This document shows, one piece after another, positions 3,735 to 38,517 of a DNA stretch of 38,756 bases. The notes under the pieces were generated by a model. It saw nothing but the letters and a program-made list of their open reading frames with translations, was not told the origin of the DNA and did no database searches. This stretch comes from Pyrinomonadaceae bacterium (GTDB taxonomy: Bacteria > Acidobacteriota > Blastocatellia > Pyrinomonadales > Pyrinomonadaceae), in the NCBI GenBank assembly GCA_036833775.1, contig DAITPE010000001.1, positions 1 to 38,756 of the forward strand. Reading direction: 5' to 3'. The translations under genes and the position numbers were made by a program. Position 1 is the stretch's first letter. Each line of letters opens with the position of its first letter.

Positions 3735-5273
3735 TCAATCGCCTCGCAGCATTGCCGGAAGCGTCAATAAGATAATTTTCAGATCGAGCCATAAAGACCA
3801 ATTTTCGATGTAGAAAATATCAATTCTGACCATTTCGTCAAAGGTCAGCCGATTTCTTCCCGAAACTTGCCATAAACCCGTAATTCCGGGCTTCATATCC
3901 AATCTTTTGCGATGCCAGAGTTCGTAATTTTCGACTTCGTAAGGAATCGGCGGACGCGGTCCGACGATGCTCATATCGCCTTTCAAAACATTCAAAAACT
4001 GCGGCAATTCATCCAAGCTCGTGCGGCGCAAAATTTTTCCGATTTTCGTGATGCGCGGATCGTTTTTGACCTTGCCGAAGACGGGTTTTTCGTCGTCGCC
4101 CGCGTTTGCTTCCTGCGCGCCTTCGATATTTTTCAGATACGCTTCACGATGAATTTTGTCGTCCGCATCCGACTTCATCGTGCGAAATTTGTAGCAGAGA
4201 AAAATTCGCCCGTCCATTCCGACGCGCTCTTGTTTGAAAAGAATCGCACCGTGCGAATCGAGTTTTATAAGCAGCGAAATTATCAGCCAAACAGGCGAAA
4301 AAACGGCGAGCGCGATTGCGGAAATTACAATATCCGAAAGGCGTTTGACCAATCTTTCCGCGTCCGAAAGCGGTTCACGAAACAGCCTGACCATCGGCAA
4401 AACGCCGATTTGTTCAACGCTGGTTTTCTGCGGCAGAACATTAAAAAGCGATGGTGCGAAACGAAATTCGACCTTTTGACTTCGCCCGACCTGCATCATC
4501 GCTTCGAATAATTTTTCGCTCGGAATCTTGTCGTCGGTAATGATTACTTCCTGAATCGCCAATTCACGAATCAGCGCAGGCAATTCTTCAACGCCGCCGA
4601 CAACCGAAACCTTCTCGAAATCTCTCCGCATCTCCGCGTCTCCGCGTCCTAAATTCCCTTCCACAATCCCGATCACGCGATAACCGAGTTCGGGACGTTC
4701 ATTAAGCTCGCGCAAAGTTTGTTCAGCTTCGGCGTTCGTGCCGACGATCAGCGTTGGAATCAGATTAATATCGCGTTTTCTAATAAGCGTCTGCACGAAT
4801 CGCAGCGACAAATGAAATGCTGAAAACGCCGCGAGCGCGAATGCAAAATTTATCAAAAAAACGCCGCGCGAATATGGAAAATCGCGGAAAGCATAACCGC
4901 CTCGAAAAAGAAACGTAAACGCGATTGTCAGAAGTGACGCGACCGAAACGGCTTTGAAAATCTTGATAAATTCGGCGACGTAGGAAAACGCGCCTTGCAG
5001 ACGGTAAACGCGCTGATAAATCAACATCGCGAGTTGAATCGGGATGATAAAAAACACGACTCCGGCATACGGCACGAAATCTTTTGACCAAGCCCACGCC
5101 GTCTGCGAAAAAACGGGTTTTCCTTCGCGCAACGCAAACGCCAAAGTGAAGCAAAGAAACGCCAAAAATCCGTCGAGCGCAAAGATCGAAACTTTGACCG
5201 TCGGCAAAATCCAGACGGGAACGCGGTTTTCGGCGCGTGTGATTTTTGTTTCGATGGCGTTTTCGGCTTTCAT
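3735..5273 (-). CDS. Polyprenyl-phosphate hexose-1-phosphate transferase (WbaP-like priming sugar transferase for exopolysaccharide/O-antigen synthesis)
   Basis: 512 aa with N-terminal TM helices and a central nucleotide-binding-like domain. The C-terminus is a typical bacterial sugar transferase domain (KFRTM...DPRIT..G..LR..SLDELPQ..NVL.G.MS.VGPRP...PG.TG.WQV). Confidence 0.9.
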   Translation of the reverse strand: MKAENAIETKITRAENRVPVWILPTVKVSIFALDGFLAFLCFTLAFALREGKPVFSQTAWAWSKDFVPYAGVVFFIIPIQLAMLIYQRVYRLQGAFSYVAEFIKIFKAVSVASLLTIAFTFLFRGGYAFRDFPYSRGVFLINFAFALAAFSAFHLSLRFVQTLIRKRDINLIPTLIVGTNAEAEQTLRELNERPELGYRVIGIVEGNLGRGDAEMRRDFEKVSVVGGVEELPALIRELAIQEVIITDDKIPSEKLFEAMMQVGRSQKVEFRFAPSLFNVLPQKTSVEQIGVLPMVRLFREPLSDAERLVKRLSDIVISAIALAVFSPVWLIISLLIKLDSHGAILFKQERVGMDGRIFLCYKFRTMKSDADDKIHREAYLKNIEGAQEANAGDDEKPVFGKVKNDPRITKIGKILRRTSLDELPQFLNVLKGDMSIVGPRPPIPYEVENYELWHRKRLDMKPGITGLWQVSGRNRLTFDEMVRIDIFYIENWSLWLDLKIILLTLPAMLRGD

Positions 5274-5493: not shown

Positions 5494-6570
5494 ATGAAAC
5501 AATCGCCTTTAAAAATTTTGATAACCGCGCCGAGTTTGGACGAAACGCGCCACGTCAGCGGCATTTCGACCGTCGTGCGGCAAATTATCGAACACGGCAA
5601 TTTTTCATACGCGCATTTCGAAGCCGGACGCAGCGACGGCGAACCAAAAAGTTTCGGCTGGTTTTTGCGGCAATTACGGCTTCCTTTTCGGTTTTTCGTG
5701 ACGCTCAAAAGCGGAAATTTCGACGTTGTTCACATCAATACGGCGTTTAATCCGCTTTCTATTTATCGTGATTTTGCGCTCGTCAAAGCGGCGAAATTTG
5801 CACAAACGCGAATCGTTTTGCACGTTCACGGCGGGAAATTTCTCGCGCAGGAATTTGAAAATTTGCGGCTCAAAAACACCGCCGAACGGATGCTTCGATT
5901 GGCGGACGAAATCATCGTTTTGAGCGAACTCGAAAAGAAAATTATCGAAAAGCGTTGGCAAAATTTGAGCGTTAAAGCGTTGGAAAATGCGGTCGAAATT
6001 CCAACTTTTGAAACAACCGAAAAGCGGAAAAATTCGATTCTTTTTCTCGGACGTTTGACCGAATCGAAAGGTTTGAACGAAATTATTGAAGCTCTTCGCA
6101 CTTTGAAAAGCGAAGGTTATGACTTTACTTTTAAAGCGTTCGGCGCGGGCGAAATGCAGAATTTTTTCGTCGATGAAATGACGAAAATTCTCGGCGAAGA
6201 TTTCTTTTTCGGCGGCGTGATCGCGGGAAAAGCGAAGCTTGATGAACTAAATAAAGCCGATATTTTCGTGCTTCCGTCGCGTCACGGCGAAGGTTTGCCG
6301 ATGGCTTTGCTCGAAGCGATGGCAGCAAAATGCGTCTGCGTCGCGTCCGAAATGGCATCGATCGGCGCAGTCGTGCGCGACGGCGAAAACGGCTTTCTCG
6401 TCAGACCGCACGACACATTCGATTTTTTTCTAAAACTGCGGATGATCTTGTCGGCAAACACCGATTTTGAAATTTTGCGCGAACGTGCGCGGCAGACGAT
6501 CGCCGAAAAATTCAATCTGCGCGATTACATCGAGCGTTTGGAAAAAATTTACGCCGAAGCCCGCCGCTAA
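5494..6570 (+). CDS. Glycosyltransferase family 4 (GT-B, Glycos_transf_1)
   Basis: Start set at the ATG giving MKQSPLKILITAPSL. The C-terminal half carries the GT4 signature (FLGRL...KG......PS..EGLPMALLEAMA......S......V.DGENGFLV). Confidence 0.9.
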   Translation: MKQSPLKILITAPSLDETRHVSGISTVVRQIIEHGNFSYAHFEAGRSDGEPKSFGWFLRQLRLPFRFFVTLKSGNFDVVHINTAFNPLSIYRDFALVKAAKFAQTRIVLHVHGGKFLAQEFENLRLKNTAERMLRLADEIIVLSELEKKIIEKRWQNLSVKALENAVEIPTFETTEKRKNSILFLGRLTESKGLNEIIEALRTLKSEGYDFTFKAFGAGEMQNFFVDEMTKILGEDFFFGGVIAGKAKLDELNKADIFVLPSRHGEGLPMALLEAMAAKCVCVASEMASIGAVVRDGENGFLVRPHDTFDFFLKLRMILSANTDFEILRERARQTIAEKFNLRDYIERLEKIYAEARR

Positions 6571-6572
6571 AA

Positions 6573-6845
6573 GTGTCAGAGGCTCTGCGGAAAGTGTCAG
6601 ACGGTCTGCGGACTGTGTCAGCACCTTTGCGGAACGTGTCAGCAGGTTTGCGGAAAGTGTCAGTTACCTTGCGGAGTGTGTCAGTCGGTCTGCGCGGTGT
6701 GTCAGACGCTCTGCGCACACTGTCAGCAACCTTGCGCAGTGTGTCAGTTGCTTTGCGCACACTGTCAGCAACCTTGCGCAGTGTGTCAGTTGCTTTGCGC
6801 ACACTGTCAGCGACCTTGCGCAGTGTGTCAGCGACTCTGCGCAGC
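6573..6845 (+). repeat. Tandem array of 13 x 21-bp units (consensus GTGTCAG-N5-YTGCGSA-NN)
   Basis: Counted directly: 13 head-to-tail units with no spacers. Units 8-11 are an exact 42-bp duplication. The array fills the gap between the GT4 stop (6568-6570) and the wecG-like ATG (6875). All three plus frames and one minus frame are open across it. Confidence 0.95.
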
Positions 6846-6874
6846 AGTAAACATAGGCATTTTATGAAATTGTG

Positions 6875-7657
6875 ATGGAAAACTCTTTATCCGAAAAAAA
6901 GCGCGTCCGCGTCGTCAGTTTAACGCCGAACGTCGTTTCGCACGACAGGGCGATTGCCGTGATTACCGAATTGGCGCGGCAAAAACGCGGCGCGTATGTC
7001 TGTTTTTCGACCGTGCATATGGTGATGGAATCGTATGACGACGCGGAATTCGGTGCGCGTGTGAACGGTGCGGATTACATCGTCACAGACGGAATGCCGC
7101 TCGTTTGGATGCAGAAATTTCAAGGCGCAAAAGACGCTTCGCGCGTTCGTGCAAACGATCTGATGATTTCTTTGTGCGAATATGCCGCGCAGAATAATTT
7201 ATCGGTCGGCTTTTACGGCGGAAAGCAGGAAGTCATCGATGCAATTCAAGAACGCGCAAATCGCGAATTGCCCGAACTGAAAATTGTTTACGCTTTTTCG
7301 CCTCCGTTTCGCGCTTTGACCGAAGCGGAAGATGCGGAGATCGTCGCGGAAATAAACCGCGCGAATCCAGACATTTTATTTATGGGGTTGGGCTGTCCGA
7401 AGCAGGAAAATTGGATGTCTTCACACAAAGATAAATTAAAAACCGTGATGCTCGGCGTCGGCGCGTCGTTCGATTTCTACGCCGGAAACGTCAAAGAATC
7501 GCCCGAATGGATGGGCAAACTCGGCTTGGAATGGCTTTACCGTCTGACGCAGGAACCGAAACGTCTGTGGCGCAGATATTTAATCTTAAACCCGCGTTTT
7601 ATGTTCCTCGCCGCGCTTCAACTGCTCGGTTTGAAAAAATTCGATAAGAAGAAATAG
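6875..7657 (+). CDS. WecG/TagA/CpsF-family glycosyltransferase (GT26, N-acetylmannosaminyl/ManNAcA transferase-like)
   Basis: 260 aa with typical GT26 blocks (VCFSTVHMVMES, IVTDGMPLVWMQK, LFMGLGCPKQENWM, GVGASFDFYAGNVK..P.WM...GLEWLYRL..EPKRLWRRY). Confidence 0.9.
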   Translation: MENSLSEKKRVRVVSLTPNVVSHDRAIAVITELARQKRGAYVCFSTVHMVMESYDDAEFGARVNGADYIVTDGMPLVWMQKFQGAKDASRVRANDLMISLCEYAAQNNLSVGFYGGKQEVIDAIQERANRELPELKIVYAFSPPFRALTEAEDAEIVAEINRANPDILFMGLGCPKQENWMSSHKDKLKTVMLGVGASFDFYAGNVKESPEWMGKLGLEWLYRLTQEPKRLWRRYLILNPRFMFLAALQLLGLKKFDKKK

Positions 7658-26525: not shown

Positions 26526-27971
26526 ATGTCATCGCAAGCAACTTTAGAACATCTTGCAAACCGCGAATATAAATACGGTTTTGTCACGGATATTGAAACG
26601 GAAACCATTCCGAAAGGTTTGACGGAAGATACGGTTCGGCTGATCAGCGAAAAGAAAAACGAGCCGGAATGGATGCTCGAATTTCGTCTGAAAGCATTTC
26701 GCCGCTGGCTGGAAATGAAACAACCCGATAATTGGGCAAATTTCGATTATCCAAATGTCGATTTTCAAAATATCACATATTACGCCGCGCCGAAACAAAA
26801 AGCGAAAAAGCAAAGTTTGGACGAAGTTGACCCCGAATTGATCAAAACTTTTGAAAAGCTCGGCATTCCTTTATCCGAACAAAAGATGCTTGCAAACGTC
26901 GCGGTCGATGCGGTTTTCGATTCGGTTTCGGTCGCCACGACATACAAAGAAAAACTCAAAAAAGCGGGTGTAATTTTTATGCCGTTTTCTGAAGCTTTGA
27001 TCGAACATCCCGATCTGATCAAAAAATATCTCGGCTCGGTCGTTCCCGTGAGTGATAATTTCTACGCCGCTTTAAATTCAGCCGTTTTCTCTGACGGTTC
27101 ATTCGTTTTCATCCCGAAAGGCGTTCGTTGCCCGATGGAGCTTTCGACATATTTCCGCATCAATACGCAAGAATCGGGACAGTTTGAACGCACGTTAATT
27201 GTTGCCGAAGAAGGTGCTTACGTTGCATATAATGAAGGCTGCACCGCGCCGCAGTTTGATACGAATCAGCTTCACGCGGCGGTCGTCGAACTCGTCGCGT
27301 TGGACGATGCGGAAATTAAATATTCGACCGTTCAGAATTGGTACGCGGGCGACGAATCGGGCAAAGGCGGAATTTATAATTTCGTGACCAAACGCGGCGC
27401 GTGTCGCGGAAAAAATTCAAAAATCTCTTGGACGCAGGTTGAAACCGGAAGCGCGATTACTTGGAAATATCCGTCCGTTATTCTTCAAGGCGACAATTCG
27501 ATCGGCGAATTTTATTCGGTCGCGCTGACGAACAACGCACAGATCGCCGACACGGGAACGAAGATGATTCACATCGGCAAAAATACGAAATCGACCATCG
27601 TTTCAAAAGGAATTTCTGCCGGAAAATCAAATAATTCGTATCGCGGACTTGTAAAAGTGATGCCGAAAGCCGAAGGCGCGAGAAATTATACGCAATGCGA
27701 TTCGATGCTCATTGGCGGCAAATGTGAAGCGAACACTTTTCCGTATATCGAAGTGATGAACAATTCGGCGCGTGTCGAACACGAAGCGACGACTTCCAAA
27801 ATCAGCGAAGAACAATTGTTTTATCTCCAACAGCGCGGCATCTCGCAGGAAGACGCAGTTTCATTAATAATCAACGGTTTTTGCAAAGAAGTTTTCCGCG
27901 AACTCCCGATGGAATACGCCGTCGAAGCGCAAAAACTTCTCGGACTGAAACTGGAAGGAAGCGTCGGTTAA
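26526..27971 (+). CDS. sufB: Fe-S cluster assembly scaffold protein SufB
   Basis: 481 aa with canonical SufB blocks throughout ([63 protein letters not shown]). Confidence 0.95.
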
Positions 27972-27975
27972 AAAT

Positions 27976-28494
27976 ATGTATTGTCCGAATTGCGGAGCTA
28001 AGAATAACAAAAAGCAGAATTTCTGCCGTTATTGCGGCTTGCATTTGCAAAACATTGAAAAAGTATTTTCTAATCAGCTCGTTTTCGGAACGGAAACGAA
28101 ACGGCTGAAAAGTTTGAGGCAAATCAGACAAATAACCGATTACGTGCAGTTTTTTACGTTTTTTACGCTCGCTTTGGGATTGATATTTTTGTTTTATGAT
28201 TCGTCATTCGGAAAAATGCTGATAACGGCGAGCTTGCTGGCATATTTTCTGGCAGAAACAGTGCGTCAGATTTACGGTTATTTCCAACGTCAGGATTCGG
28301 CGAAAAACAAAGAATCGGAAAATTTTAATACTTCTTCAAAAAACGAATTTGAAGCCAAAGAAACAAATAAACTTCTCGAAGAAAAACCCTTTGTTGCTGC
28401 TTCGAGCGTGACCGAAAATTCGACCGAATTACTGATCGAAAAGGTAAAAGTTAAAAATTCGGATTTGAATGTCGAAGAGACAAGACAATTGTGA
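27976..28494 (+). CDS. Zinc-ribbon membrane protein (N-terminal CxxC-x12-CxxC, two TM helices, polar tail)
   Basis: 172 aa. MYCPNCGAKNNKKQNFCRYCG is followed by two hydrophobic helices. It starts 4 nt after the sufB stop. Confidence 0.6.
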   Translation: MYCPNCGAKNNKKQNFCRYCGLHLQNIEKVFSNQLVFGTETKRLKSLRQIRQITDYVQFFTFFTLALGLIFLFYDSSFGKMLITASLLAYFLAETVRQIYGYFQRQDSAKNKESENFNTSSKNEFEAKETNKLLEEKPFVAASSVTENSTELLIEKVKVKNSDLNVEETRQL

Positions 28495-28495
28495 A

Positions 28496-28882
28496 ATGAA
28501 CAAAATCAAGTTGCCTAACACACCCGAACCGAAAGGTCATTATTCGCCAGCCGTAGAATTTAACGGCTTAATTTTTGTGTCGGGACAATTGCCGATGAAT
28601 CACGCGACGGGTGAAGTCGAAACGGGCGATATTGAAAAACAAACCGAGCTTGCTTTGCGAAATGTCGAGGCGATTTTGTCGGCGGCAAACAGCGATCTGA
28701 ATCACGTTTTGCAGATGACGATCTATGTTTCGGAAATGGAACTTTGGGACAAGGTGAACGAAGTTTACAAACGCATTTTGGGCGAACACAAACCGGCGCG
28801 AGCAATCGTTCCCGTGAAAGATTTGCATTTCGGAACGAAAATCGAAATTCAGGCAATCGCGGCGTTGAAAGAAGAAATTTGA
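28496..28882 (+). CDS. ridA: RidA/YjgF/L-PSP family reactive-intermediate deaminase
   Basis: Start set at MNKIKLPNT. Blocks YSPAV.....IFVSGQ.P and RA.V.V..L......EI.AIA. Confidence 0.9.
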   Translation: MNKIKLPNTPEPKGHYSPAVEFNGLIFVSGQLPMNHATGEVETGDIEKQTELALRNVEAILSAANSDLNHVLQMTIYVSEMELWDKVNEVYKRILGEHKPARAIVPVKDLHFGTKIEIQAIAALKEEI

Positions 28883-28946
28883 ACCGCAGATTTACGCGGA
28901 TAAAACCAAAAATAACATCTGTGTTTATCCGCGTAAATCTGCGGTT
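28882..28946. repeat. REP-like palindromic element, family 3b (23-bp perfect stem, 19-nt loop)
   Basis: AACCGCAGATTTACGCGGATAAA (28882-28904) is the exact reverse complement of TTTATCCGCGTAAATCTGCGGTT (28924-28946). It begins at the last base of the ridA stop codon. Confidence 0.9.
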
Positions 28947-28955
28947 AATAGTTTT

Positions 28956-29738
28956 ATGAAATTAGACATTTATCAGGTTGACGCATTCACGAGCGAAGTT
29001 TTCGGCGGAAATCCGGCGGCGATTTGTCCTTTGGAGGAATGGCTTGAAACAGATTTGATGCAGAAAATTGCGCTTGAAAATAATTTGAGCGAAACGGCAT
29101 TTTTTGTAAAAAAAGATGATGTTTACGAGATTCGCTGGTTTACGCCGACTTATGAGATCGATCTTTGCGGACACGCGACTTTGGCGAGTGCGTATGTGAT
29201 TTTTGAAATTTTGAAAACGGAAGAAAGTCTCGTGAAATTTCATTCGTACAAAAGCGGTGCACTCGAAGTCGAAAAACAAGGCGATCGTTTAACTCTCGAT
29301 TTCCCTTCGCGTCCCGTTTTAAAAACCGAACTTCCCGAAGGTTTAAGCGAAGCGATCGGAAAAGAACCGCAAGAAACTTACAAAGCGCGTGATTATTTTC
29401 TGGTTTATGAAACAGAACAAGACGTTTTAGAAATTCAGCCGAATTTCTCAAAACTATTGGAAGTCGGCGGACACGGTTTTATCGTTACGGCAAAAGGCGA
29501 AAATTCGGATTTCGTTTCACGCTTTTTTGCGCCCGAAGTCGGCGTTTTTGAAGACCCTGTGACGGGTTCGGCACATTGCAATCTGATCCCGTTTTGGGCG
29601 GAAAGATTGGGCAAAACAGAACTTTTTGCAAAACAAGTTTCTGCTCGCGGCGGTGAACTTTTTTGTAAACTCGAAGGCGACCGTGTGAAGATCGGCGGAA
29701 ATGCAGTTTTGTATTTGAAAGGTGAAATTTATGTCTAA
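28956..29738 (+). CDS. PhzF-family isomerase/epimerase-like protein
   Basis: 260 aa with QVDAFT...F.GNPAA.C, ETAF and CGHATLA motifs. Confidence 0.9.
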   Translation: MKLDIYQVDAFTSEVFGGNPAAICPLEEWLETDLMQKIALENNLSETAFFVKKDDVYEIRWFTPTYEIDLCGHATLASAYVIFEILKTEESLVKFHSYKSGALEVEKQGDRLTLDFPSRPVLKTELPEGLSEAIGKEPQETYKARDYFLVYETEQDVLEIQPNFSKLLEVGGHGFIVTAKGENSDFVSRFFAPEVGVFEDPVTGSAHCNLIPFWAERLGKTELFAKQVSARGGELFCKLEGDRVKIGGNAVLYLKGEIYV

Positions 29739-30351
29739 AACTGCGATTGTCATTTTCGATAAATTTACCGATCTCGACCTTTGGCTGATGTGGGATTTGC
29801 TGAATCGTGTCAAAGTCGAAAACTGGGAAGTAAAGATTTTAGGCGAAAAAGATTTTCACGTTTCGGCGACGAATATCGAAGTAAAAACTAACGGAAAAAT
29901 CGAAGAAGCAAACAATGCCGATGCCGTGCTTTTTATCAGCGGACAAGGAACGCGTGATCGAATCGCAGATGAAAATTGGCTTGGAAAGTTTGATTTGAAC
30001 CCCGAAAAGCAACTGATTGGTTCGATTTGTTCGGGAAGCTTGATCTTGGCAAAACTCGGACTTTTGCAAGGAAAAACGGCAACGACTTATCCGACATCGA
30101 AAGCGGTTTTGGAAAGTTTCGGCGTTGAAGTTGTCGAAAAACCTTTTGTCGCGCACGGAAATGTCGCTACGGCAGGCGGTTGTTTGGCGCAGCAATATTT
30201 AATTCACTGGGTGATCGAAAATCTGGCTGATAAAGATTGGGCGGATTTGGTCGTCAAAGCCGTTCAGCCCGTCGGCGAAGGTTTGTTTTTTGAAGACGCG
30301 GAAGAGTTGAAAAAACTTTACGCGCCAATGACGAGCGCAGTCACAAATTAA
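29731..30351 (+). CDS. DJ-1/PfpI-family protein
   Basis: About 206 aa with the nucleophile-elbow Cys in IGSICSGSLILAKLGLL.GK.ATT. The ATG overlaps the phzF-like 3' end by 8 nt. Confidence 0.85.
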   Translation: MSKTAIVIFDKFTDLDLWLMWDLLNRVKVENWEVKILGEKDFHVSATNIEVKTNGKIEEANNADAVLFISGQGTRDRIADENWLGKFDLNPEKQLIGSICSGSLILAKLGLLQGKTATTYPTSKAVLESFGVEVVEKPFVAHGNVATAGGCLAQQYLIHWVIENLADKDWADLVVKAVQPVGEGLFFEDAEELKKLYAPMTSAVTN

Positions 30352-30375
30352 AAAGTATCTCTGTTATTTGAAAAA

Positions 30376-31053
30376 ATGGTTCAATATTATCTAACTACAT
30401 TTTTTTTATTTCTAACTTTCGGAACTGTAATCTCTGCACAGACAACGACTTACGATACCGATTTTCAGATTTGGAACGATACGCAGTTTATAATTCCGCT
30501 TAATGAAAAGAAAGATTTGACCGCGACGATCTGGGTTTTCGGGCGTTTGGGAAATAATCTAAAAACCGCGACTGATGCGCGAATCGGCGGTTTGATAAAT
30601 AAAAAGGTCAACAAAAATCTGACGTTGAGCGCGGGTTATTTGTATCGCTACTCAAATACTACTTTTACGCAGAAAAGATATGAAAGCCGCTATCTCGGCA
30701 TCGCAACCGCGACGCTTCCGCTCGGCAAAAAGTTTACGCTCGTAAATCGGAATATGTATCAATACGAAGACCGATATTCGCGCCCGAATGCAAGCGTCGT
30801 GCGAAGCCGTTTTTGGTTGAAACGCGAAATTACAGTAGCGAAAAAGAAAATCGAACCGTTTGTTTCGTTTGAGCCATTTTACGATTTTCGGCTCAAAAAT
30901 TTTGCCAGATACCGAACTCAAGTTGGTTTTTCGCATAAATTAAACGCAAAATTTTCGGCTGATTACTATTACGTCCGCCAAGACGAAACCGGAAACGGAA
31001 CGCGTCCGGGAACTTTGAACGGAATCGGTTCGAGTTTTAGAGTTAATTTTTAA
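30376..31053 (+). CDS. Secreted beta-rich protein, probable outer-membrane beta-barrel (DUF2490-like)
   Basis: 225 aa with a signal peptide (FFLFLTFGTVISAQ). It has alternating-hydrophobicity strands, frequent aromatic-X-aromatic patterns and a C-terminal F. The DUF2490 call is from memory. Confidence 0.55.
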   Translation: MVQYYLTTFFLFLTFGTVISAQTTTYDTDFQIWNDTQFIIPLNEKKDLTATIWVFGRLGNNLKTATDARIGGLINKKVNKNLTLSAGYLYRYSNTTFTQKRYESRYLGIATATLPLGKKFTLVNRNMYQYEDRYSRPNASVVRSRFWLKREITVAKKKIEPFVSFEPFYDFRLKNFARYRTQVGFSHKLNAKFSADYYYVRQDETGNGTRPGTLNGIGSSFRVNF

Positions 31054-31070
31054 GGTTAGATTTAAAAATA

Positions 31071-31104
31071 GAGGCAAACAAGAATTTATTTTTCTGTTTG
31101 CCTC
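31071..31104 (+). terminator. Terminator-like hairpin downstream of the DUF2490-like gene
   Basis: GAGGCAAACA (31071-31080) pairs with TGTTTGCCTC (31095-31104). There is no clean U-tract after it, so the call is tentative. It is followed by a 155-nt gap before the next gene. Confidence 0.4.
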
Positions 31105-31259
31105 ATAAACTCGGCAGTTAAAAAACTTAAATCTTGATTTTTTTTTCAAGTTTTAATGAAATCGGTCTTTGAAACGAGATTTTAAGCTTTCTTTTTTGAT
31201 ATAATGCAAAGCAAACAAGCGATTTTCTTTGAAGATTTCGGATTGTTTATCGAATAAAA

Positions 31260-32030
31260 ATGCTCGCAGAGATCAAAAAGGAATTGGCGCGAATCGAAGA
31301 CGAAAGCGAGATTAAAATCCTACTCGCCGTCGAATCGGGCAGCCGCGCTTGGGGATTTGCTTCGGCAGACAGCGATTGGGATGTGCGCTATATTTACATC
31401 CATAAATTAGATTGGTATTTGAAAATCGACGAGCAAAAAGATTCGCTCGAAGAAATTTTGCCGAACGAGCTCGATCTTTCGGGTTGGGAATTAAAAAAAG
31501 CCTTAAAACTTTTCCGAAAATCGAATCCGCCGATGCTCGAATGGTTGCGAAGCCCGATAATTTACACGGAACAATTTTCGACTGCCGAAAAATTGCGTGA
31601 ATTCAGCCAAACGTATTTCAATCCGAAATCGTGTATGTATCATTATTTGAGTATGGCGAAAGGAAATTTCAAGGAATTTTTACAGCGCGATGCGGTTCGT
31701 CTGAAAAAATATTTCTACGTTTTGCGCCCTGTTTTGGCGTGCGATTGGATCAAGGAAACGAATTCGTTTCCGCCGATGGAATTTAAAAAACTGCTCGATT
31801 CGCAAGTAAAAGATGCAATAATTCGCTGCGAAATCGATGAATTATTGAAACGTAAGATCGCGGGCGACGAAATGAAGGAAGAACCGAAAATCGATATTTT
31901 GAATGAGTTTTTGGAAGAAAAGATAAATTTTTACAACGATTTTGTCGGCGAAATCGAAGCTAACGAAAAGCCGAACACAGAAATGCTCGACACGCTTTTC
32001 AAAGAAACGATTTTTGAGGTTTGGAAATAA
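31260..32030 (+). CDS. Pol-beta-superfamily nucleotidyltransferase, RlaP/PF10127-like
   Basis: 256 aa. ILLAVESGSRAWGFASADSDWDVRYIYIH is the characteristic GS-x-motif plus acidic-residue block of this family. Confidence 0.8.
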   Translation: MLAEIKKELARIEDESEIKILLAVESGSRAWGFASADSDWDVRYIYIHKLDWYLKIDEQKDSLEEILPNELDLSGWELKKALKLFRKSNPPMLEWLRSPIIYTEQFSTAEKLREFSQTYFNPKSCMYHYLSMAKGNFKEFLQRDAVRLKKYFYVLRPVLACDWIKETNSFPPMEFKKLLDSQVKDAIIRCEIDELLKRKIAGDEMKEEPKIDILNEFLEEKINFYNDFVGEIEANEKPNTEMLDTLFKETIFEVWK

Positions 32031-32240
32031 ATGAAAGACGGAATTTGTCCGAAATGTAAGTCGGAAGAAGTATATATTGATACTGCAAACAGGCACGGAA
32101 TTATCGTTCCGGTGCATAGTTTGGCAACTCGCCCAACGCATTTATACGTTTGTGTGGATTGCGGTTATCTCGAATTTTATGCACGGACGGGCTTTGATTT
32201 GCAAAAGGTAAAAGAAAAATTCAAAAAAGTTAAAAATTAA
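32031..32240 (+). CDS. 69-aa zinc-ribbon protein (CPKC...CVDCG)
   Basis: The ATG directly abuts the TAA of the nucleotidyltransferase gene (TAAATG). Two CxxC pairs are 46 residues apart. Confidence 0.55.
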   Translation: MKDGICPKCKSEEVYIDTANRHGIIVPVHSLATRPTHLYVCVDCGYLEFYARTGFDLQKVKEKFKKVKN

Positions 32241-32255
32241 GGAAATTTAATAAAA

Positions 32256-33008
32256 ATGTTATTAGAAATAAAAGATTTACACGCAGGAATCGAAGGAAAA
32301 GAGATTTTAAAAGGCTTGAATTTGACGGTCAATAAAGGCGAAGTTCACGCGATTATGGGACCGAACGGTTCGGGAAAATCTACTTTGTCGAAAGTTTTAG
32401 CCGGTCATCCAAGTTATGAAGTAATTTCGGGCGAAGTAGTTTACGAAGGCAAAAATCTGCTCGAACTCGAACCCGACGAACGCGCTCGGAGCGGCGTTTT
32501 TCTCGCGTTTCAATATCCGGTCGAAGTTCCGGGCGTTTCAAATTCGCAGTTTTTGCGGCTCGCTTACAATGAAAAAATGAAGCATTTGGGCGAAGAAGAA
32601 CTCGATCCGCTCGAATTCAACGATTATTTGACGGAAAAAGCGAAGATCGTCGAAATGGACAAATCGTTTTTCAAGCGTTCGGTCAACGAAGGCTTTTCGG
32701 GCGGTGAAAAGAAACGCAATGAAATTTTGCAAATGGCTGTTTTAGAACCGAAGCTCGCGATTCTTGACGAAACCGATTCAGGATTGGACATCGATGCTTT
32801 GCGAATCGTTGCCGAAGGCGTAAATAAATTGCGTTCATCAGAAAACGGAATAATTCTCGTCACACATTATCAACGGCTTTTGAATTACATTCAGCCTGAT
32901 TTTGTGCACGTTTTGGCAAACGGAAAAATCGTCAAAGAAGGCGGCAAAGAATTGGCTTTAGAATTAGAAGAAAAAGGCTACGATTGGGTAAAAGCGGCGA
33001 CTAAATAA
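32256..33008 (+). CDS. sufC: Fe-S cluster assembly ATPase SufC
   Basis: 250 aa. Walker [13 protein letters not shown] signature FSGGEKKR, Walker [13 protein letters not shown], plus the SufC-typical N-terminus LEIKDLHA. Confidence 0.95.
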
Positions 33009-33010
33009 GC

Positions 33011-33031
33011 GCGAATTTGAGGCAAATTCGC
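33011..33031 (+). other. Small hairpin between sufC and the following membrane-protein gene
   Basis: GCGAATTTG-agg-CAAATTCGC (9-bp stem, 3-nt loop), followed by an A-run rather than a U-run. It is therefore not a standard terminator on the + strand. Confidence 0.35.
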
Positions 33032-33038
33032 AAAAAAT

Positions 33039-35174
33039 ATGACACAAAAATCCGAATCGAAAAATTCAAATCTTGCATTGATTCTAAAGGTTTTGTGGGC
33101 AGCGGTTTTGCTCTTCGGCTTTTTATATTTTCGCGGCGAAGATTTGGGCAAATTAGGCAGTTTGCTCGGAAATTTGACCGACGGAAAACTGTTCGGCGCA
33201 AACGGTTTCGGCGAAAGCATTGCAGGAATTTTCAGCGCGAGTTTGATCGCCGCTTCGTGGTTCGGTTTCGGTTCTTTGATAACGAATTTGTTGAAAAAGT
33301 TTTTTGCCAAAGATGAAAACGCGGAAAATGATTCGCCGTTTTTGGAAACGGCAAGAAGTTTTGCGGTCGGCGCGGGAATTTGGTCGCTGATCTGGTTTTT
33401 TCTCGGAATTTTCGGCGCGTATAACAAAATTTCGGCGATTGTTGCAGTAATTTTCGGCGTTTGTTTGGCTGTTTGGAAGTTTTTGGAAAACCGAAAATCG
33501 GTTGAAAAATCGAACGAAAATTTCGATATTGCCGGAAAAATCGCGTTTGGATTGGTTTTATTTTTGCTGGTTTTGGCATTGATTTCGGCGATTGCGCCGC
33601 CGATTGCGAAAGATACTTTGCTTTATCATTTTGCCGTTCCGAAAAACTTTATCGCCGCCGGAAATAATTCGGTAATTGAAGGAAACATTGCGAGTTATCT
33701 CGCTTTGGGAACGGAAATGCACGTCGTTTGGGCGATGCTTTTGGGAAATTCCGTCAACGCACGTGTTGGAGAAATTTCCGCCGGAGTTACGGTTTTCGCG
33801 TTTTTGCCGATTCTACTCGTCGCAATTTACGGTTGGTCGCGCGAACTCGGATTGAATAAAACTTGGGCGATGATTTCCGCGCTTCTTTTTGCGAGCATTC
33901 CGACGGTTTATCACGTTGCTTCGGGCGGTTATATCGATCTTGCGCTGACGCTTTTCGTGACGCTTGCGGTTCATTCGATTGCGCGTTGGTGGCACGATCT
34001 GAGCAATGAAAGATTGGTTTTTGCGGCAATTTTGCTCGGTGCGGCTTTGTCGGTAAAACTGACGGCGGCGTTTACGATAATTGCGCTTGCTTTCATCGTT
34101 TTATTGCGAATCCGCGAAGAACAAACGGCTGAAAAACCGCAAATTACGCAGATTTTTACGAAAGGATTTTTGACATTTCTGGCGGCGGGACTTTTGGCAA
34201 GTCCTTGGTATTTGCGTGATTGGGCTGCAACCGGAAGCCCGATCTTTCCTTTTTATATGAATTTATGGAAAGGAACCGCGACGGGTTGGGATTCGGAAAG
34301 ATCGGTTCTTTTTCAAGTGATAAATACGCATTACGGCGGATTTCCGAAAGGAATCACTGATTATTTGATCTCGCCTGTGATGATTTCGCTCAGAGCACAA
34401 CCAGAACTTCCCGAATTTTTCGACGGCGTTTTGGGAATCGCGTTTTTATTCGGAATTCCTTTAATTATTTGGGCTTGGCGGCGTTCGCTTTTGAAAACGG
34501 AACTGAAACTGGGAATTTTGGTCGCAGGTTTGCTGTTTTTATTCTGGCTTTTTACGAGTCAACAGCTTCGTTATCTGCTGCCGATTTTTCCAATTTTGGC
34601 AATTTCGATCTGTTTTTCGGCGAGCTTGCTTTCGCTTGAAAATAAACTTTCAAAGCAAGTTTGGACGGCTATCTTTTTGATAATTTCATTTGTCGGCACG
34701 GGCGTGACGCTGGCTTGGTTTGCGCAAAAAAGTCCTTTGCAGGTTGCACTCGGCGGTGAGACGCGCGACGAATATTTGACGGCGAACATTGATTATTATC
34801 CGTATTATCAACTAATTAACACCCAATTGCCGCCGGATGCGAAAGTTTGGCTGATAAATATGCGGCGCGATTCTTATCTGATTGAAAAACCGTATTTTTC
34901 GGATTATATGTTTGAAGATTGGACGCTGAAACAGTTTTCGGAAGAATCGAATTCGGTTAATGAACTTCGCGCAAAGGCGAAAAAATTAGGCATTACGCAT
35001 ATTTTGGCACGGCACGATTTTCTACTCGATTTCGATAAATCGGTCGTCGTCGATCCGCAAAAACGAACCGAAACGGAAAATCGCAAAAAACTGCAAATGG
35101 TGAAAGATTTTATATTAGACGGCAATAATACGCTCAAAGCGGACAAGCGTTTCAGTCTTGCAAAACTGCCGTAA
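33039..35174 (+). CDS. Large polytopic membrane protein, GT-C-fold (ArnT/PMT_2-like) glycosyltransferase candidate with C-terminal soluble domain
   Basis: 711 aa with more than 12 hydrophobic helices. An Asp-containing first-loop motif (IAPPIAKDTLLYHF) sits where GT-C enzymes carry catalytic acidic residues. The C-terminal ~150 aa are hydrophilic. Confidence 0.6.
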   Translation: MTQKSESKNSNLALILKVLWAAVLLFGFLYFRGEDLGKLGSLLGNLTDGKLFGANGFGESIAGIFSASLIAASWFGFGSLITNLLKKFFAKDENAENDSPFLETARSFAVGAGIWSLIWFFLGIFGAYNKISAIVAVIFGVCLAVWKFLENRKSVEKSNENFDIAGKIAFGLVLFLLVLALISAIAPPIAKDTLLYHFAVPKNFIAAGNNSVIEGNIASYLALGTEMHVVWAMLLGNSVNARVGEISAGVTVFAFLPILLVAIYGWSRELGLNKTWAMISALLFASIPTVYHVASGGYIDLALTLFVTLAVHSIARWWHDLSNERLVFAAILLGAALSVKLTAAFTIIALAFIVLLRIREEQTAEKPQITQIFTKGFLTFLAAGLLASPWYLRDWAATGSPIFPFYMNLWKGTATGWDSERSVLFQVINTHYGGFPKGITDYLISPVMISLRAQPELPEFFDGVLGIAFLFGIPLIIWAWRRSLLKTELKLGILVAGLLFLFWLFTSQQLRYLLPIFPILAISICFSASLLSLENKLSKQVWTAIFLIISFVGTGVTLAWFAQKSPLQVALGGETRDEYLTANIDYYPYYQLINTQLPPDAKVWLINMRRDSYLIEKPYFSDYMFEDWTLKQFSEESNSVNELRAKAKKLGITHILARHDFLLDFDKSVVVDPQKRTETENRKKLQMVKDFILDGNNTLKADKRFSLAKLP

Positions 35175-35201
35175 AAGATTTTAATAAAAAGGTTTATAAA
35201 A

Positions 35202-36338
35202 ATGACACAAGTTGTGAAAGAAACGATTTATACAAATTATTTCAAAGAATTTATTGCCAACGAAAACAATGGCGAACTGAAAAATCTGCGCGAAAAAGCG
35301 TTTGAGTTTTTCACGGAAAACGGTTTTCCGACGCCGCAAAATGAAGAGTGGAAATATACGAACGTAAAGCCGATTTCGGATTTGGGATTTCGGATTTGGG
35401 ATTTGAAATCGAGCGATGGCGTGAACGAATTTTTGAAGCAATTTAATTTTGAACGCAACGGATTTACGGCGTTGAATCTGGCGTTTGCGAATGTCGTTTT
35501 GGTGACGATTCCGAAGGAAACTTCGGTCGAAAAACCGATCGAATTTAATTTCAATGCAGAAGAAAATTCGGCGAATTTTCCGCACATTATCGTCGTTGCC
35601 GAAGCCGGAAGTAAAGCGACGATCATCGAAAATTACGAATCGAGCGCGGAAAGTTTTACGAATACGGCAATTCAGATTTTCGTCGCGGAAAACGCGAATC
35701 TGACGCATTATCGCGTCCAAAAAGAATCGGCAGAAGCGTTTCACATCGGGACGACTGAAATCACTCTAAAACGCGGAAGTCTTTATAATTCAACGAATAT
35801 AAACTTGGGAGCAAAATTGTCGCGGCACGATATTCATCTGAAATTTACCGAAGAAGGCGGCGAAGCGTTTGTTGACGGACTTTATATGCTTTCGGGCGAA
35901 CAGCATCACGACACGCATTCGGAAATCGATCACGCACTTCCGAACTGCGTTTCGCATCAAACCTACAAAGGCGTTTTGAACGACAAATCGCGCGGAGTTT
36001 TCAACGGCAAAGTTTTCGTCCGCGAAAACGCTTCGGGAACCGACGCACAGCAATCGAACAAAAATCTTCTGCTTTCAAACGACGCGCGGGTTGACACAAA
36101 ACCGCAGTTAGAGATTTTCAACGACGACGTAAAATGTTCGCACGGCGCAACCGTCGGGCAGTTGGAAGACGAAGAATTGTTTTATTTATTGAGTCGCGGT
36201 TTGAACGAAAGTTTGGCAAAAAATCTTTTGACTTACGGTTTCGCGGAAGAAATCGTGAATAAGATCGAAATCGAATCGATCAAAAAAGAATTGGACGAAG
36301 CGGTTTTGAATCGTTTGAATACGAGTTTAGAAGCGTAG
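35202..36338 (+). CDS. sufD: Fe-S cluster assembly protein SufD
   Basis: 378 aa with the SufD C-terminal beta-helix blocks (H......Q.YKGVL.D.SRGVF.GKV.V......TDA.Q.N.NLLLS..A.VDTKP.LEI..DDVKCSHGATVG). Confidence 0.9.
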   Translation: MTQVVKETIYTNYFKEFIANENNGELKNLREKAFEFFTENGFPTPQNEEWKYTNVKPISDLGFRIWDLKSSDGVNEFLKQFNFERNGFTALNLAFANVVLVTIPKETSVEKPIEFNFNAEENSANFPHIIVVAEAGSKATIIENYESSAESFTNTAIQIFVAENANLTHYRVQKESAEAFHIGTTEITLKRGSLYNSTNINLGAKLSRHDIHLKFTEEGGEAFVDGLYMLSGEQHHDTHSEIDHALPNCVSHQTYKGVLNDKSRGVFNGKVFVRENASGTDAQQSNKNLLLSNDARVDTKPQLEIFNDDVKCSHGATVGQLEDEELFYLLSRGLNESLAKNLLTYGFAEEIVNKIEIESIKKELDEAVLNRLNTSLEA

Positions 36339-36353
36339 TTTGAGGTAAAAATT

Positions 36354-36596
36354 ATGAGCGAAATTTTGACGATGGAAGAGATCGAAAAAAAATATGACGG
36401 CGAATGGGTTTTGATCGAAGATGTCGAAGCCAATGAGCAGTTGGAGATTCTGCGCGGAAAAGTAACTTATCACGGTAAAGATAAAAACGAGCTGCATCAG
36501 ATAGCGATGAAATCTGAATCAAAACATCTCGCTTCGCTGTTCATCGGCAAACCCGATCCGAATATGGGATTTATGTTGGGCTTTGAAAACGTATAA
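36354..36596 (+). CDS. DUF5678-like small protein
   Basis: 80 aa. The YDGEWVLIEDVE......G.V.YHG.DK.EL pattern recalls DUF5678. GAGGT lies upstream of the ATG. Confidence 0.55.
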   Translation: MSEILTMEEIEKKYDGEWVLIEDVEANEQLEILRGKVTYHGKDKNELHQIAMKSESKHLASLFIGKPDPNMGFMLGFENV

Positions 36597-36602
36597 ATTT
36601 TT

Positions 36603-36986
36603 ATGAAATTTAAGTTTAAAGCCGATTACGGATTGGTTTACGTGCGCGTCAAAGTCGGTTTTGCAGATAAAGAATTCATATTGAATTTGGCACTCGACAC
36701 AGGCGCAAGCGGCACGATAATTTCGGCGAAAAAATTGCGCGAAGTCGGTTACGATTTGGACAATCCCGAAGATGAAATTTATATCACGACCGGAAGCGGT
36801 TTGATATTTGTTCCGAAGATTACGATTGAAAAATTGACGGCGTTAGGCAAAGAAGTTTCGGATTTTGTCGTCATCGCTCACGATTTCCCGCCGACATCGA
36901 GCGTTGACGGCGTTTTAGGTTTGGACTTTTTGCGTGAAAGCATTTTGACGGTTGATTTTGTGGAAGGTGAAATTGAATTAATTTGA
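36603..36986 (+). CDS. Retropepsin-like (clan AA) aspartic protease
   Basis: 127 aa with the catalytic LALDTGASGTIIS and the flap/dimer block DGVLGLDFL. Confidence 0.85.
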   Translation: MKFKFKADYGLVYVRVKVGFADKEFILNLALDTGASGTIISAKKLREVGYDLDNPEDEIYITTGSGLIFVPKITIEKLTALGKEVSDFVVIAHDFPPTSSVDGVLGLDFLRESILTVDFVEGEIELI

Positions 36987-36989
36987 AAA

Positions 36990-37271
36990 ATGTTGAAAGC
37001 GATTTTTGTGACAGCAGAAGTTATAAAAGGGCAAGACAAAAAGACTCTTGTTGTAAATGGTGAGTTACAAGAAGGAGAAATTCAAGTAGGAATGTTTCTA
37101 AAAATTGCTTTTAACGCTTCTTTCGGAATGACAGTTCCGATTTCAAAAATTGTAAATAAATCTGGAAATCAAATGACTTTGATTTTAGATTGCAAAGATG
37201 AAGAAGGTGCAAATTTCGTTGAATCAATGAATTTTGAACATGAATGGGTTGAAATTCAAGACGAAGAATAA
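36990..37271 (+). CDS. Hypothetical 93-aa protein (EF-Tu domain-2-like small beta-barrel flavour), visibly lower GC than its neighbours
   Basis: The ORF is tightly packed, 3 nt after the protease stop and 4 nt before the sufS ATG. The GELQEGEIQVGMFLKI pattern resembles translation-protein beta-barrels. AT-rich codons dominate. Confidence 0.5.
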   Translation: MLKAIFVTAEVIKGQDKKTLVVNGELQEGEIQVGMFLKIAFNASFGMTVPISKIVNKSGNQMTLILDCKDEEGANFVESMNFEHEWVEIQDEE

Positions 37272-37275
37272 AAAT

Positions 37276-38517
37276 ATGACAGCAGTAAAAGAAATGAGCA
37301 ATTTTGATGTAAATAAAGTTCGTGCGGATTTTCCGGTTTTGTCGCAGACGGTGAACGGCAAGCCGCTCGTTTATCTCGACAACGGCGCGTCTTCGCAAGT
37401 GCCGAATCTGGTGATCGAGCGCGGTTCAAAATATTTGGCGGAAGAGCATTCGAATATTCATCGCGGTGTGCATTATTTGTCGCAACACGCGACGACGGCT
37501 TATGAAGCGGCGCGTGAAAAGGTGAAACGCTTTATCAATGCGCCGTCGGCGAAGGAATGCATTTTCGTGCGCGGCTGCACCGAAGGCGTGAATTTGGTTG
37601 CTTATTCCTACGGTCGAAAATTTATCGGCGAAGGCGACGAAATTATTCTTTCGCAGATGGAACATCACGCCAATATTATTCCTTGGCAGGTCATCGCGGA
37701 AGAAAAAGGCGCGAAAATTCGTGTGATTCCGATGAATGAACGCGGCGAACTCATCATTGAAGAATACGAAAATATGCTCAATGAGCGGACGAAAATCGTT
37801 GCGATCACGCACGTTTCAAATTCACTCGGAACGATCAATCCGGTCAAAGAAATGATCGCCACGGCTCATAAATTCGGCGTTCCCGTGCTGATTGACGGAG
37901 CGCAGGCGATTCCGCATTTTCCGGTTGACGTGCAGGATTTGGACGCGGATTTTTATACTTTTTCGGGTCATAAAATGTTTGCGCCGACGGGTTCGGGCGT
38001 GCTTTTCGGAAAGAAAGAATGGCTCGACAAAATGCCGCCGTATCAAACCGGCGGCGGGATGATTCGCACCGTCACGTTTGAAAAAACGACTTACGCGCCG
38101 ATTCCCGAAAAATTCGAAGCCGGAACGCCCGCGATCGCGGCAAACATCGGTTTAGGCGCGGCGGTTGATTATTTGAATTCGATCGATTTCGAAGCCGCCG
38201 CAAAATACGAACACGAATTGCTTGAATACGCGACCGAAAAACTTTCCGCGATCGAAGGCGTAAAAATCATCGGAACGGCAAAAGAAAAAGCGTCGGTGAT
38301 TTCGTTCACGATCGAAAATGTTCACCCGCACGACATCGGCACGATCTTAGATCAACAAGGAATCGCCGTTCGCGCCGGACATCATTGCGCTCAGCCCGTA
38401 ATGCAGTTTTTCGACGTTCCCGCGACGGCTCGCGCTTCGTTCGCTTTTTACAACACGAAGGAAGAAGTGGATAAATTAGCCGAAGCGATTCAAAAAGTTA
38501 TTGATGTTTTTGCTTAA
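37276..38517 (+). CDS. sufS: Cysteine desulfurase SufS (group II, PLP-dependent)
   Basis: Start at MTAVKEMSNFD. PLP-Lys block FSGHKMFAPTGSGVL and active-site Cys loop RAGHHCAQP. Confidence 0.95.
   Translation: MTAVKEMSNFDVNKVRADFPVLSQTVNGKPLVYLDNGASSQVPNLVIERGSKYLAEEHSNIHRGVHYLSQHATTAYEAAREKVKRFINAPSAKECIFVRGCTEGVNLVAYSYGRKFIGEGDEIILSQMEHHANIIPWQVIAEEKGAKIRVIPMNERGELIIEEYENMLNERTKIVAITHVSNSLGTINPVKEMIATAHKFGVPVLIDGAQAIPHFPVDVQDLDADFYTFSGHKMFAPTGSGVLFGKKEWLDKMPPYQTGGGMIRTVTFEKTTYAPIPEKFEAGTPAIAANIGLGAAVDYLNSIDFEAAAKYEHELLEYATEKLSAIEGVKIIGTAKEKASVISFTIENVHPHDIGTILDQQGIAVRAGHHCAQPVMQFFDVPATARASFAFYNTKEEVDKLAEAIQKVIDVFA

Follow-up and report, generated by a model that had tools for sequence, protein, structure and literature searches.

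In the stretch of 38,756 nucleotides of contig DAITPE010000001.1 from a metagenome-assembled genome of a Pyrinomonadaceae bacterium that was analysed here (assembly GCA_036833775.1; hereafter the window), a gene encoding a GT4-type glycosyltransferase and the downstream gene encoding a WecG/TagA/CpsF-family glycosyltransferase (hereafter WecG) are separated by an array of 21-bp direct repeats. Comparison with orthologous loci suggests that this array is probably a non-coding, length-polymorphic minisatellite, which entered the site where the stop of GT4 and the start of WecG overlapped in one clade of soil Acidobacteria of the family Pyrinomonadaceae and which would uncouple the two genes. Of the two alternatives considered in an earlier, sequence-only reading of the same DNA, the non-coding one is hence favoured over the coding one, while the hairpins and complementary blocks that it attached to the non-coding one fail.

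The array, its parts and its junctions are listed below, with the evidence given in brackets; L numbers designate loci outside the window.

6573-6845, no strand: array of 13 x 21 bp with the consensus N-TGTCAG-N5-YTGCG(G/C)-N3 in exact register (sequence, Tandem Repeats Finder [TRF] and pattern match)
6573-6677, no strand: units 1-5, the TGCGG subfamily, still alignable unit by unit to L206 and L208 (unit-level alignment)
6678-6845, no strand: units 6-13, the TGCGC subfamily, present in this lineage only, that is, in the window and L001 (allele comparison)
6720-6803, no strand: exact 42-bp duplication, units 8-9 being identical to units 10-11 (read directly from the sequence)
5494-6570, plus strand: GT4-type glycosyltransferase gene with the domains Glycos_transf_1 and Glyco_transf_4 (domain and open reading frame analysis)
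6552-6572, plus strand: left junction, comprising five new final GT4 codons (A-E-A-R-R), the stop codon TAA at 6568-6570 and then AA (alignment with the array-less loci L207 and L003)
6846-6874, plus strand: AU-rich tail from the array to the WecG start (kept in L206 and L208)
6864-6875, plus strand: mini open reading frame of three codons, ATG-AAA-TTG-TGA, the stop of which overlaps the WecG ATG as TGATG (read directly)
6875-7657, plus strand: WecG/TagA/CpsF-family glycosyltransferase gene, protein HQU81477.1, Pyrinomonadaceae bacterium (protein match and domains)

The repeat array and its insertion between the two genes

The region from 6573 to 6845 consists of 13 head-to-tail units, each of which opens with (G/C)TGTCAG, and TRF reported periods of 21 and 42 across positions 6570-6844. 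The pattern TGTCAG-N5-YTGCG yielded 13 matches at exact 21-nt steps, as compared to 0.74 +/- 0.93 matches expected from dinucleotide shuffles of the window; outside the array, only one further match, with one mismatch, was found in the 38.7-kb window. One unit of the TGCGG subfamily within units 1-5, gtgtcagcacctttgcggaac, has the same letters in the window and in L206. The 13 units as transcribed in the sequence-only reading are identical to the sequence, and the exact 42-bp duplication that it had described for units 8-11 was found again at 6720-6803.

This duplication is a probable breakpoint for short-read assembly. The independent Logan contig L001 (SRR850207) begins inside the array beside the 42-bp duplicate, and the 3′-end of its array is identical to that of the window. 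Because the graph of a short-read assembly would be expected to break at the point where L001 begins, the 42-mer could be under-assembled and present in more than two copies in this genome. The array as such is genuine, since the 3′-end in L001 is identical and since related arrays are present in NCBI, JGI and Logan assemblies. The assembly artefact that had been considered in the sequence-only reading is thereby ruled out. The array was also considered as a clustered regularly interspaced short palindromic repeats (CRISPR) locus and rejected as such: the units abut, the variable blocks comprise only 3-5 nt, and there are no unique spacers of approximately 30 nt.

At one and the same junction, the window carries 13 units, L002 18, L206 17, L208 13 and L210 17. 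L002 (GCA_021228405.1) is identical to L005, which originates from another sample, and harbors one degenerate unit in addition to the 18; the 3′-end of the L208 array is confirmed by L209. In these five alleles every array starts 2-3 nt past the GT4 stop and ends approximately 30 nt before the WecG ATG, and the two genes lie 300-420 nt apart in the array-bearing lineages. All of the 78 units keep the exact 21-bp register, with G3, T4 and A6 being invariant. The alleles differ mostly by the gain or loss of whole units and thus always by multiples of 21 bp, the behaviour for which the sequence-only reading had proposed to look. The array-bearing lineages are not strains of one species, since the difference between them amounts to 10-36% at four-fold degenerate sites in the flanking genes.

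In the close relatives L003, L004 and L207 the array is absent and the GT4 and WecG genes overlap by 8 nt (ATGAATAA). Likewise, none of the 57 more distant orthologous metagenome loci contains the array, and in 45 of them the gap between the two genes ranges from -8 to +49 nt. Because the genes overlap or are nearly adjacent in the close and in most of the distant loci without the array, the comparison indicates that the array is a lineage-restricted insertion and that the gene overlap is the ancestral state.

The junctions retain traces of this event. The GT4 C-terminus is rewritten in the array-bearing alleles, which end in YAEARR, YGQARR or YAQARL instead of YENLNE before the stop codon; in the alignment with L207 and L003, the left junction of the window replaces the ancestral end ...Y-E-N-L-N-E-stop that overlapped the WecG start. 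On the other side of the array, the AU-rich tail of approximately 30 nt resembles the ancestral GT4 3′-end (ATTTTATGAAATTGTG versus ATATACGAAAATTTAA), and the mini open reading frame at its end looks like a remnant of the latter. This mini open reading frame is present in all array-bearing alleles (at 2990-3001 in L206 and L208, at 5990-6001 in L002) and reads GTG-AAA-TTG-TGA in L002 and L210. Moreover, the short duplication ATTTAYG occurs at both junctions and is suggestive, albeit weakly, of a target duplication.

The array-less locus L207 falls within the array-bearing group in neighbour-joining trees of both flanking genes (calculated without bootstrap), and the identity along the locus is mosaic. 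For these two reasons, the presence or absence of the array was probably moved by homologous recombination. Within the arrays, the second core of the unit varies by block: the 5′-units carry TGCGG, units 6-13 of the window TGCGC, and the 3′-units elsewhere AATTTA or AATGC, the latter types occupying the 3′-half of the relatives' arrays at the place where the window has its TGCGC units. Such a block-wise arrangement is as expected if slipped-strand or unequal-crossover turnover homogenised neighbouring units locally.

The proposed consequence for the two genes is as follows. The array would be transcribed within the GT4-WecG mRNA. According to PMC10666635, coupling by termination and reinitiation requires overlaps or very short spacers, and for this reason the insertion would uncouple the translation of WecG from that of GT4. 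WecG would instead be initiated independently from the unstructured AU-rich tail, possibly aided by the mini open reading frame ending in TGATG, which could deliver ribosomes to the WecG start codon. The number of units would change the length of the spacer and the pairing of the RNA, and would probably shift the GT4:WecG ratio as a by-product.

Taken together, the array is an intercistronic variable-number tandem repeat, a known class, in a new variety. If the favoured reading is true, the locus would represent a clear natural case in which a minisatellite has invaded two translationally coupled genes at their overlap. Closely related uncultured Acidobacteria carry alleles with and without the array, and this offers a comparison for the effect of uncoupling on the stoichiometry of two glycosyltransferases.

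Conservation of the repeat unit and possible phased binding sites

Among the 54 distinct units, positions 3, 4 and 6 are invariant and positions 2 and 5 almost so, and positions 9, 20 and 21 are near random. Several observations of this kind weigh against the minisatellite reading. Only 5 of the 41 differences between orthologous units fall into the 13 core positions (2-6 and 11-18; binomial P ~6e-11), the other 36 being located at positions 1, 7-10 and 19-21. Furthermore, not a single small insertion or deletion was found in the 78 units, despite the four-fold-site difference of 10-36% among the lineages. Finally, the array diverges less than the four-fold sites of its flanks in three lineage pairs (2.8% versus 15-24%, 4.4% versus 10-17% and 11.9% versus approximately 30%). 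A purely neutral repeat does not explain the absence of insertions and deletions, the protected cores and the low divergence.

These objections are softened in part. Part of the core bias would result from gene conversion between units, because conversion alters only positions where the units already differ. In addition, the identity is also raised in the coding sequence adjoining the array, which suggests recent recombination and weakens the low divergence as a proof of purifying selection. Some constraint at the nucleic acid level is evident from the strict 21-bp register and from the conservation of both cores.

This constraint brings up an explanation that we regard as possible, if rather unlikely, namely that the units are phased bipartite sites (TGTCA, N4, STYTGCGG, N4) on one face of the DNA and two helical turns apart, at which a putative DNA-binding (or mRNA-binding) protein polymerises and regulates or insulates WecG, the strength being set by the number of units. 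In line with this idea, all 78 units share the exact 21-bp register, the substitutions avoid both cores, and the array persists over a divergence at the species level with a presence and absence that departs from the trees of the flanking genes. Moreover, similar 21-mers with GTGTC...GCGCA(C/G) are found at the unrelated loci L010, L212 and L213. However, these arrays came from searches that select for similarity and may resemble the array by chance. No candidate binding protein is known, genes for LytTR proteins or response regulators are absent from the window, and the motif does not occur in solitary copies beyond the chance level in approximately 80 related loci. In their 3′-halves, four alleles have AATTTA wholesale in place of the second core, and the first core is degenerate in 6 of the 18 L002 units.

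In its most far-reaching form, this explanation is unlikely. The 13-18 bipartite sites (TGTCA-N4-STYTGCGG-N4) of the array would then form a selected platform with a locked phase for a putative nucleic-acid-binding protein of the Blastocatellia that sets the expression of the WecG-type gene; the unit number would serve as a heritable tuning knob, the platform would be kept across species and moved by recombination, and the recognition system would extend to the 21-mers of L010 and L213. The lack of insertions and deletions and the protection of the cores across species would matter more if they reflected such a putative platform.

Two kinds of known binding arrays resemble the array in its spacing. 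Plasmid iterons and partition centromeres, such as the 22-bp iterons of R6K, sopC of F and parC of R1, likewise consist of head-to-tail repeats of approximately 20 bp with a spacing of two helical turns, a conserved core and variable spacers. In contrast to these, the array is chromosomal, syntenic and located in an operon next to housekeeping and glycan genes, with no rep or par gene nearby; its unit number is higher, its second core is exchangeable, and no match to it was found in the plasmid and phage collections. The LytTR sites bound by AgrA and ComE are 9-bp direct repeats spaced 21 bp from centre to centre, and here a histidine kinase gene in convergent orientation follows immediately downstream. 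LytTR sites, however, are pairs upstream of promoters, whereas the array comprises 13-18 copies between coding genes. A link to LytTR or response regulators was rejected, as the window holds no gene of either kind.

Reading frames and folding of the array RNA

The geometry of the window allele invites a coding interpretation. The GT4 stop codon TAA at 6568-6570 is followed by a GTG at 6573, which opens a frame of 100 codons (6573-6875), and the TGA of this frame overlaps the WecG ATG at 6875. This arrangement, including the GTG 2 nt past the GT4 stop and the TGATG, is as the sequence-only reading had laid it out, and six-frame translation bore out its count of four open frames out of six (+0, +1, +2 and -1), frame -2 containing one stop and frame -0 13 stops. 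Nevertheless, no reading frame behaves like a gene. Frame 0, which reads VSxxLRx, is interrupted by TAA codons in 4 of the 5 alleles, with 1-6 stops each in L002 (identical to L005), L206, L208 and L210; these stops lie in GTG-TAA-G units and in the YT-TAA-TTT units of the AATTTA subfamily. The ratio of synonymous to non-synonymous differences between orthologous units was 6:27 in frame 0, which is about the value expected from random changes, 7:23 in frame +1 and 5:27 in frame +2. In these counts, no frame of the plus strand shows purifying selection at the protein level.

Correspondingly, no homologues of the frame 0 (100 amino acids), +1 and +2 peptides were found among 5.8 billion protein clusters, no exact product of the four open reading frames was found in a collection of 15 billion proteins, and annotation pipelines called no gene inside the GT4-WecG gap in five assemblies. 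Pfam yielded no match above the cut-off for the frames 0, +1 and +2. The sole Pfam match past the cut-off was obtained with frame -1; it lies just above the threshold and comprises only 15 residues of DUF7433. The frame -1 peptide gave 311 matches among 1.84 billion representatives. These were rejected as homologues, since the search space was large and the matches were selected by similarity; they comprise a mixture of spurious open reading frames and unrelated proteins in which 21-bp repeats happen to be translated as x-D-T-x-R-K-x, from various organisms, some of them apparently eukaryotic.

A function of translation that does not depend on the peptide is conceivable but quite unlikely. Mycobacterial interspersed repetitive units (MIRUs) are described as repeats with an open reading frame that is coupled to the flanking or downstream gene (PMC12548453). 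By analogy, ribosomes would restart at the GTG 2 nt past the GT4 stop, cross the array, stop at the TGATG and thereby restore the coupling, the peptide itself being functionless. The window fits exactly (TAA-AA-GTG, 100 codons, TGATG), L206 and L208 share the GTG 2 nt past the stop, and all alleles have the TGATG junction. On the other hand, in 4 of the 5 alleles the frame opening past the GT4 stop meets a TAA inside the array, L002 and L210 have a CTG instead of the GTG past the stop, and the frame that ends in TGATG varies by allele group between frame 0 and frame +1. Furthermore, a GTG and a TTG are present in every unit, so that nearly any array of this kind permits restart chains to be drawn, and their existence is no evidence.

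We then consider it decidedly unlikely that the array is a selected structured RNA, which in the manner of repetitive extragenic palindromes (REPs) and bacterial interspersed mosaic elements (BIMEs) would act as a barrier to 3′-to-5′ exonucleases or as a processing site and confer a different stability on the GT4 and WecG mRNAs. The plus strand is indeed predicted to fold very stably, with -122.5 kcal/mol for the 321-nt region, and palindromic inserts resembling REPs or miniature inverted-repeat transposable elements (MITEs) occupy the GT4-WecG junction in other lineages. However, dinucleotide shuffles average -120.7 kcal/mol (z = -0.33), and arrays with shuffled columns fold equally well (z -1.4 to +0.35 in four alleles). 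The complementarity between blocks, for which the sequence-only reading had named CACACTG..CAGTGTG and GCAAC..GTTGC, does not exceed the chance level once the unit's palindromic CAG...CTG frame is allowed for (P = 0.02-1.0; not significant when pooled), and the hairpins or pseudoknot that it had derived from these blocks have no support in folding that is no better than that of shuffled sequences. No covariation between blocks was found, and in four alleles the 3′-half is rich in A and U and weakly paired. Rfam yielded nothing at the gathering thresholds, and only chance miRNA matches at E <= 1. The G- and U-rich array RNA would thus be heavily base-paired simply through its composition. Promoter-like or terminator-like sites were not found within the arrays, and the AATTTA units were rejected as an internal promoter on this ground.

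Frame +1 would encode a cysteine-rich heptad peptide, (C-Q-x-[LV]-C-[GA]-x)n, made from an internal start or as an extension of GT4 by read-through; we regard such a product as very unlikely. Cysteines are found at all a/d-like positions with the C-x3-C-x2-C spacing of copper-storage four-helix bundles, the TGT (Cys) triplet is retained in 77 of the 78 units, and frame +1 is contiguous with GT4 in every allele, the GT4 frame running on into it behind one stop codon. Frame +1 is also uniquely open in 4 of the 5 alleles, the exception being one TAG in L002/L005, and this single stop compares with 6.9 expected from column shuffles within subfamilies, a deficit that likewise speaks against the minisatellite reading. 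However, the alleles are related by descent, and none of them taken singly shows a significant deficit (P = 0.12-0.44). A start codon with an associated ribosome-binding site is lacking, the window and L206 are devoid of any in-frame ATG, and the stop codon to be read through in the window is TAA, the tightest one. The ratio of 7:23 argues against purifying selection on the peptide. Synonymous drift is absent, in that all retained first cysteine codons read TGT and all second ones that are present read TGC, and the second cysteine is replaced by asparagine in the AATTTA units. In addition to the lack of homologues in the protein clusters and of gene calls, Pfam gave 0 matches for this peptide even at E <= 1.

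Finally, it is extremely improbable that frame 0 encodes a 100-residue VSxxLRx coiled coil, the length of which is tuned by the unit number and serves as a ruler for the polysaccharide chain as in WbdD: although the frame of the window is open from the GTG after the GT4 stop to the TGA at the WecG start and places hydrophobic residues at an a/d-like spacing, it contains stops in L002, L005, L206, L208 and L210, exhibits no excess of synonymous changes, has no homologue, no Pfam family above the cut-off and no gene call, and lacks a catalytic or membrane domain. The heptad micro-open reading frame of the sequence-only reading was to be given up if orthologous arrays had stops in frame 0, as they do, and is thereby refuted; the substitutions, which it had proposed to test for staying synonymous in that frame, are mostly non-synonymous, and its speculation on a WbdD-like ruler is left without support. 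WbdD itself is a kinase/methyltransferase protein that includes the coiled coil. The likeness to the array lies only in the idea of a length determinant made of heptad repeats in a polysaccharide locus; the frame of the array, in contrast, is not conserved and has no enzyme domain, and no genes of an O-antigen pathway of the ABC transporter type are located beside it. The case calls for caution, in that a repeat unit poor in stops can by itself yield a perfect-looking open reading frame of 100 codons with coupled start and stop and with apparently synonymous changes in its cores.

Related repeat systems, similar arrays and neighbouring genes

Among known systems, the array comes closest in position and behaviour to the mycobacterial MIRU, to whose family it does not belong. 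In both cases tandem units of variable copy number (here 13-18) are located between co-directional operon genes, at a start codon or a stop/start junction, and in the window allele an internal open reading frame runs from the upstream stop to an overlap with the downstream start. MIRU units, as described by Supply et al. in 1997 and 2000, are reportedly 46-101 bp long and dispersed to many loci of the genome. The unit of the array, in contrast, measures 21 bp and shows no sequence similarity to them, its bridging open reading frame is broken in 4 of the 5 alleles, and the terminal TGATG lies in different frames in different allele groups. Dispersal to many loci is not seen either: no second copy of the array was found in the 38.7-kb window or in approximately 60 kb of array-bearing relatives, which together cover approximately 100 kb of this clade.

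REP/BIME and MITE-like palindromes, like the array, are situated in intercistronic spacers, including this very junction in other Pyrinomonadaceae, and could alter mRNA stability and uncouple translation. They differ from the array in that its repeats are direct and not inverted and in that its predicted folding is no better than that of shuffled sequence. The GT4-WecG gap of L134, L148, L196, L198 and L140 contains unrelated inserts, among them REP/MITE-like palindromes (GGGGCAGGTCTTGTGCCTGCCC...; TTTACAGGGATAACAGG...CCTGTTATCCCTGTAAA) and a hairpin of GTTTCAA/TTGAAAC heptamers. Because other lineages hold different repeats there, this suggests that the GT4-WecG junction is a permissive insertion site or hot spot. 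L148 (WUUC01133006.1), which represents another Pyrinomonadaceae-like lineage, carries a different 21-bp array just 3′ of its WecG orthologue (1482-1700; approximately 10 units of ATCTTTYC-N4-GGATAA-N), and some units of this array measure 20 or 22 bp.

Similar arrays were observed at unrelated loci, and we treat those of L010, L212 and L213 as leads and not as homologues, since the searches select for similarity. L010 (DATNBZ010000261.1, a metagenome-assembled genome of the Blastocatellia) contains an array of approximately 800 bp around 1880-2480 with the unit CATGTCAGGTTGCGCAGACAG and the variants TTGCGGAG and TTGCGGAA; it sits between unrelated genes, and its length variants break every frame. 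It shares the motifs TGTCAG and TTGCG(G/C)AG with the array of the window, at a spacing of 1+6 versus 5+2. L212 and L213 were reached via the search with the frame -1 peptide. L212 carries units of GTGTCCGCCGCCTYGCGCACA at 3880-4340 of a contig with 64% G+C, in a region with helix-turn-helix/MqsA-like and STALD-domain genes; this unit matches unit 9 of the window at 17 of 21 positions, which may be a chance resemblance. L213 carries a 21-bp array at 760-1060 with the unit GTGTCAGCARCACGCCGCACA, at an unrelated locus of a metagenome contig with 42% G+C. The units of L010, L212 and L213 share GTGTC and GCGCA(C/G) with those of the window.

A scan of genome contigs for four TGTCAG cores at 21-nt spacing, in which the second core was not part of the pattern, brought up unrelated arrays of TGTCAGN heptamers (TGTCAGT, TGTCAGG, TGTCAGA). 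Among the matches listed (L006-L125), these are spread widely over the phyla, being found in cyanobacteria, Planctomycetota, Acidobacteriota, Latescibacterota and others, and several genomes of the Nostocales carry multiple 21-bp arrays of TGTCAGYCGATGCAWTGGCAT. The sole match on a viral contig, L211, was rejected as an unrelated AT-rich coding repeat.

Upstream of the array, the GT4 gene is preceded by one further gene of the locus.

3735-5273, minus strand: initiating sugar transferase gene (CoA_binding_3 and Bac_transf), divergent from the GT4 gene (domains)

Together with the GT4 and WecG genes, it constitutes a small glycan cluster. At some distance, the suf genes of the window (26526-38517) are broken up by unrelated genes: after SufB (26526-27971) come Zn-ribbon, PhzF-like, DJ-1/PfpI, DUF2490 and RlaP genes, and then a SufC-like ABC ATPase (32256-33008), a PMT-like glycosyltransferase of 711 amino acids (33039-35174), SufD (35202-36338) and SufS (37234-38517). 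The SufD-like open reading frame harbors a repeat of its own between its N-terminal and core domains, namely 4.9 copies of the heptamer GATTT(C/G)G at 35372-35405, in which a 14-mer is repeated with 100% identity.

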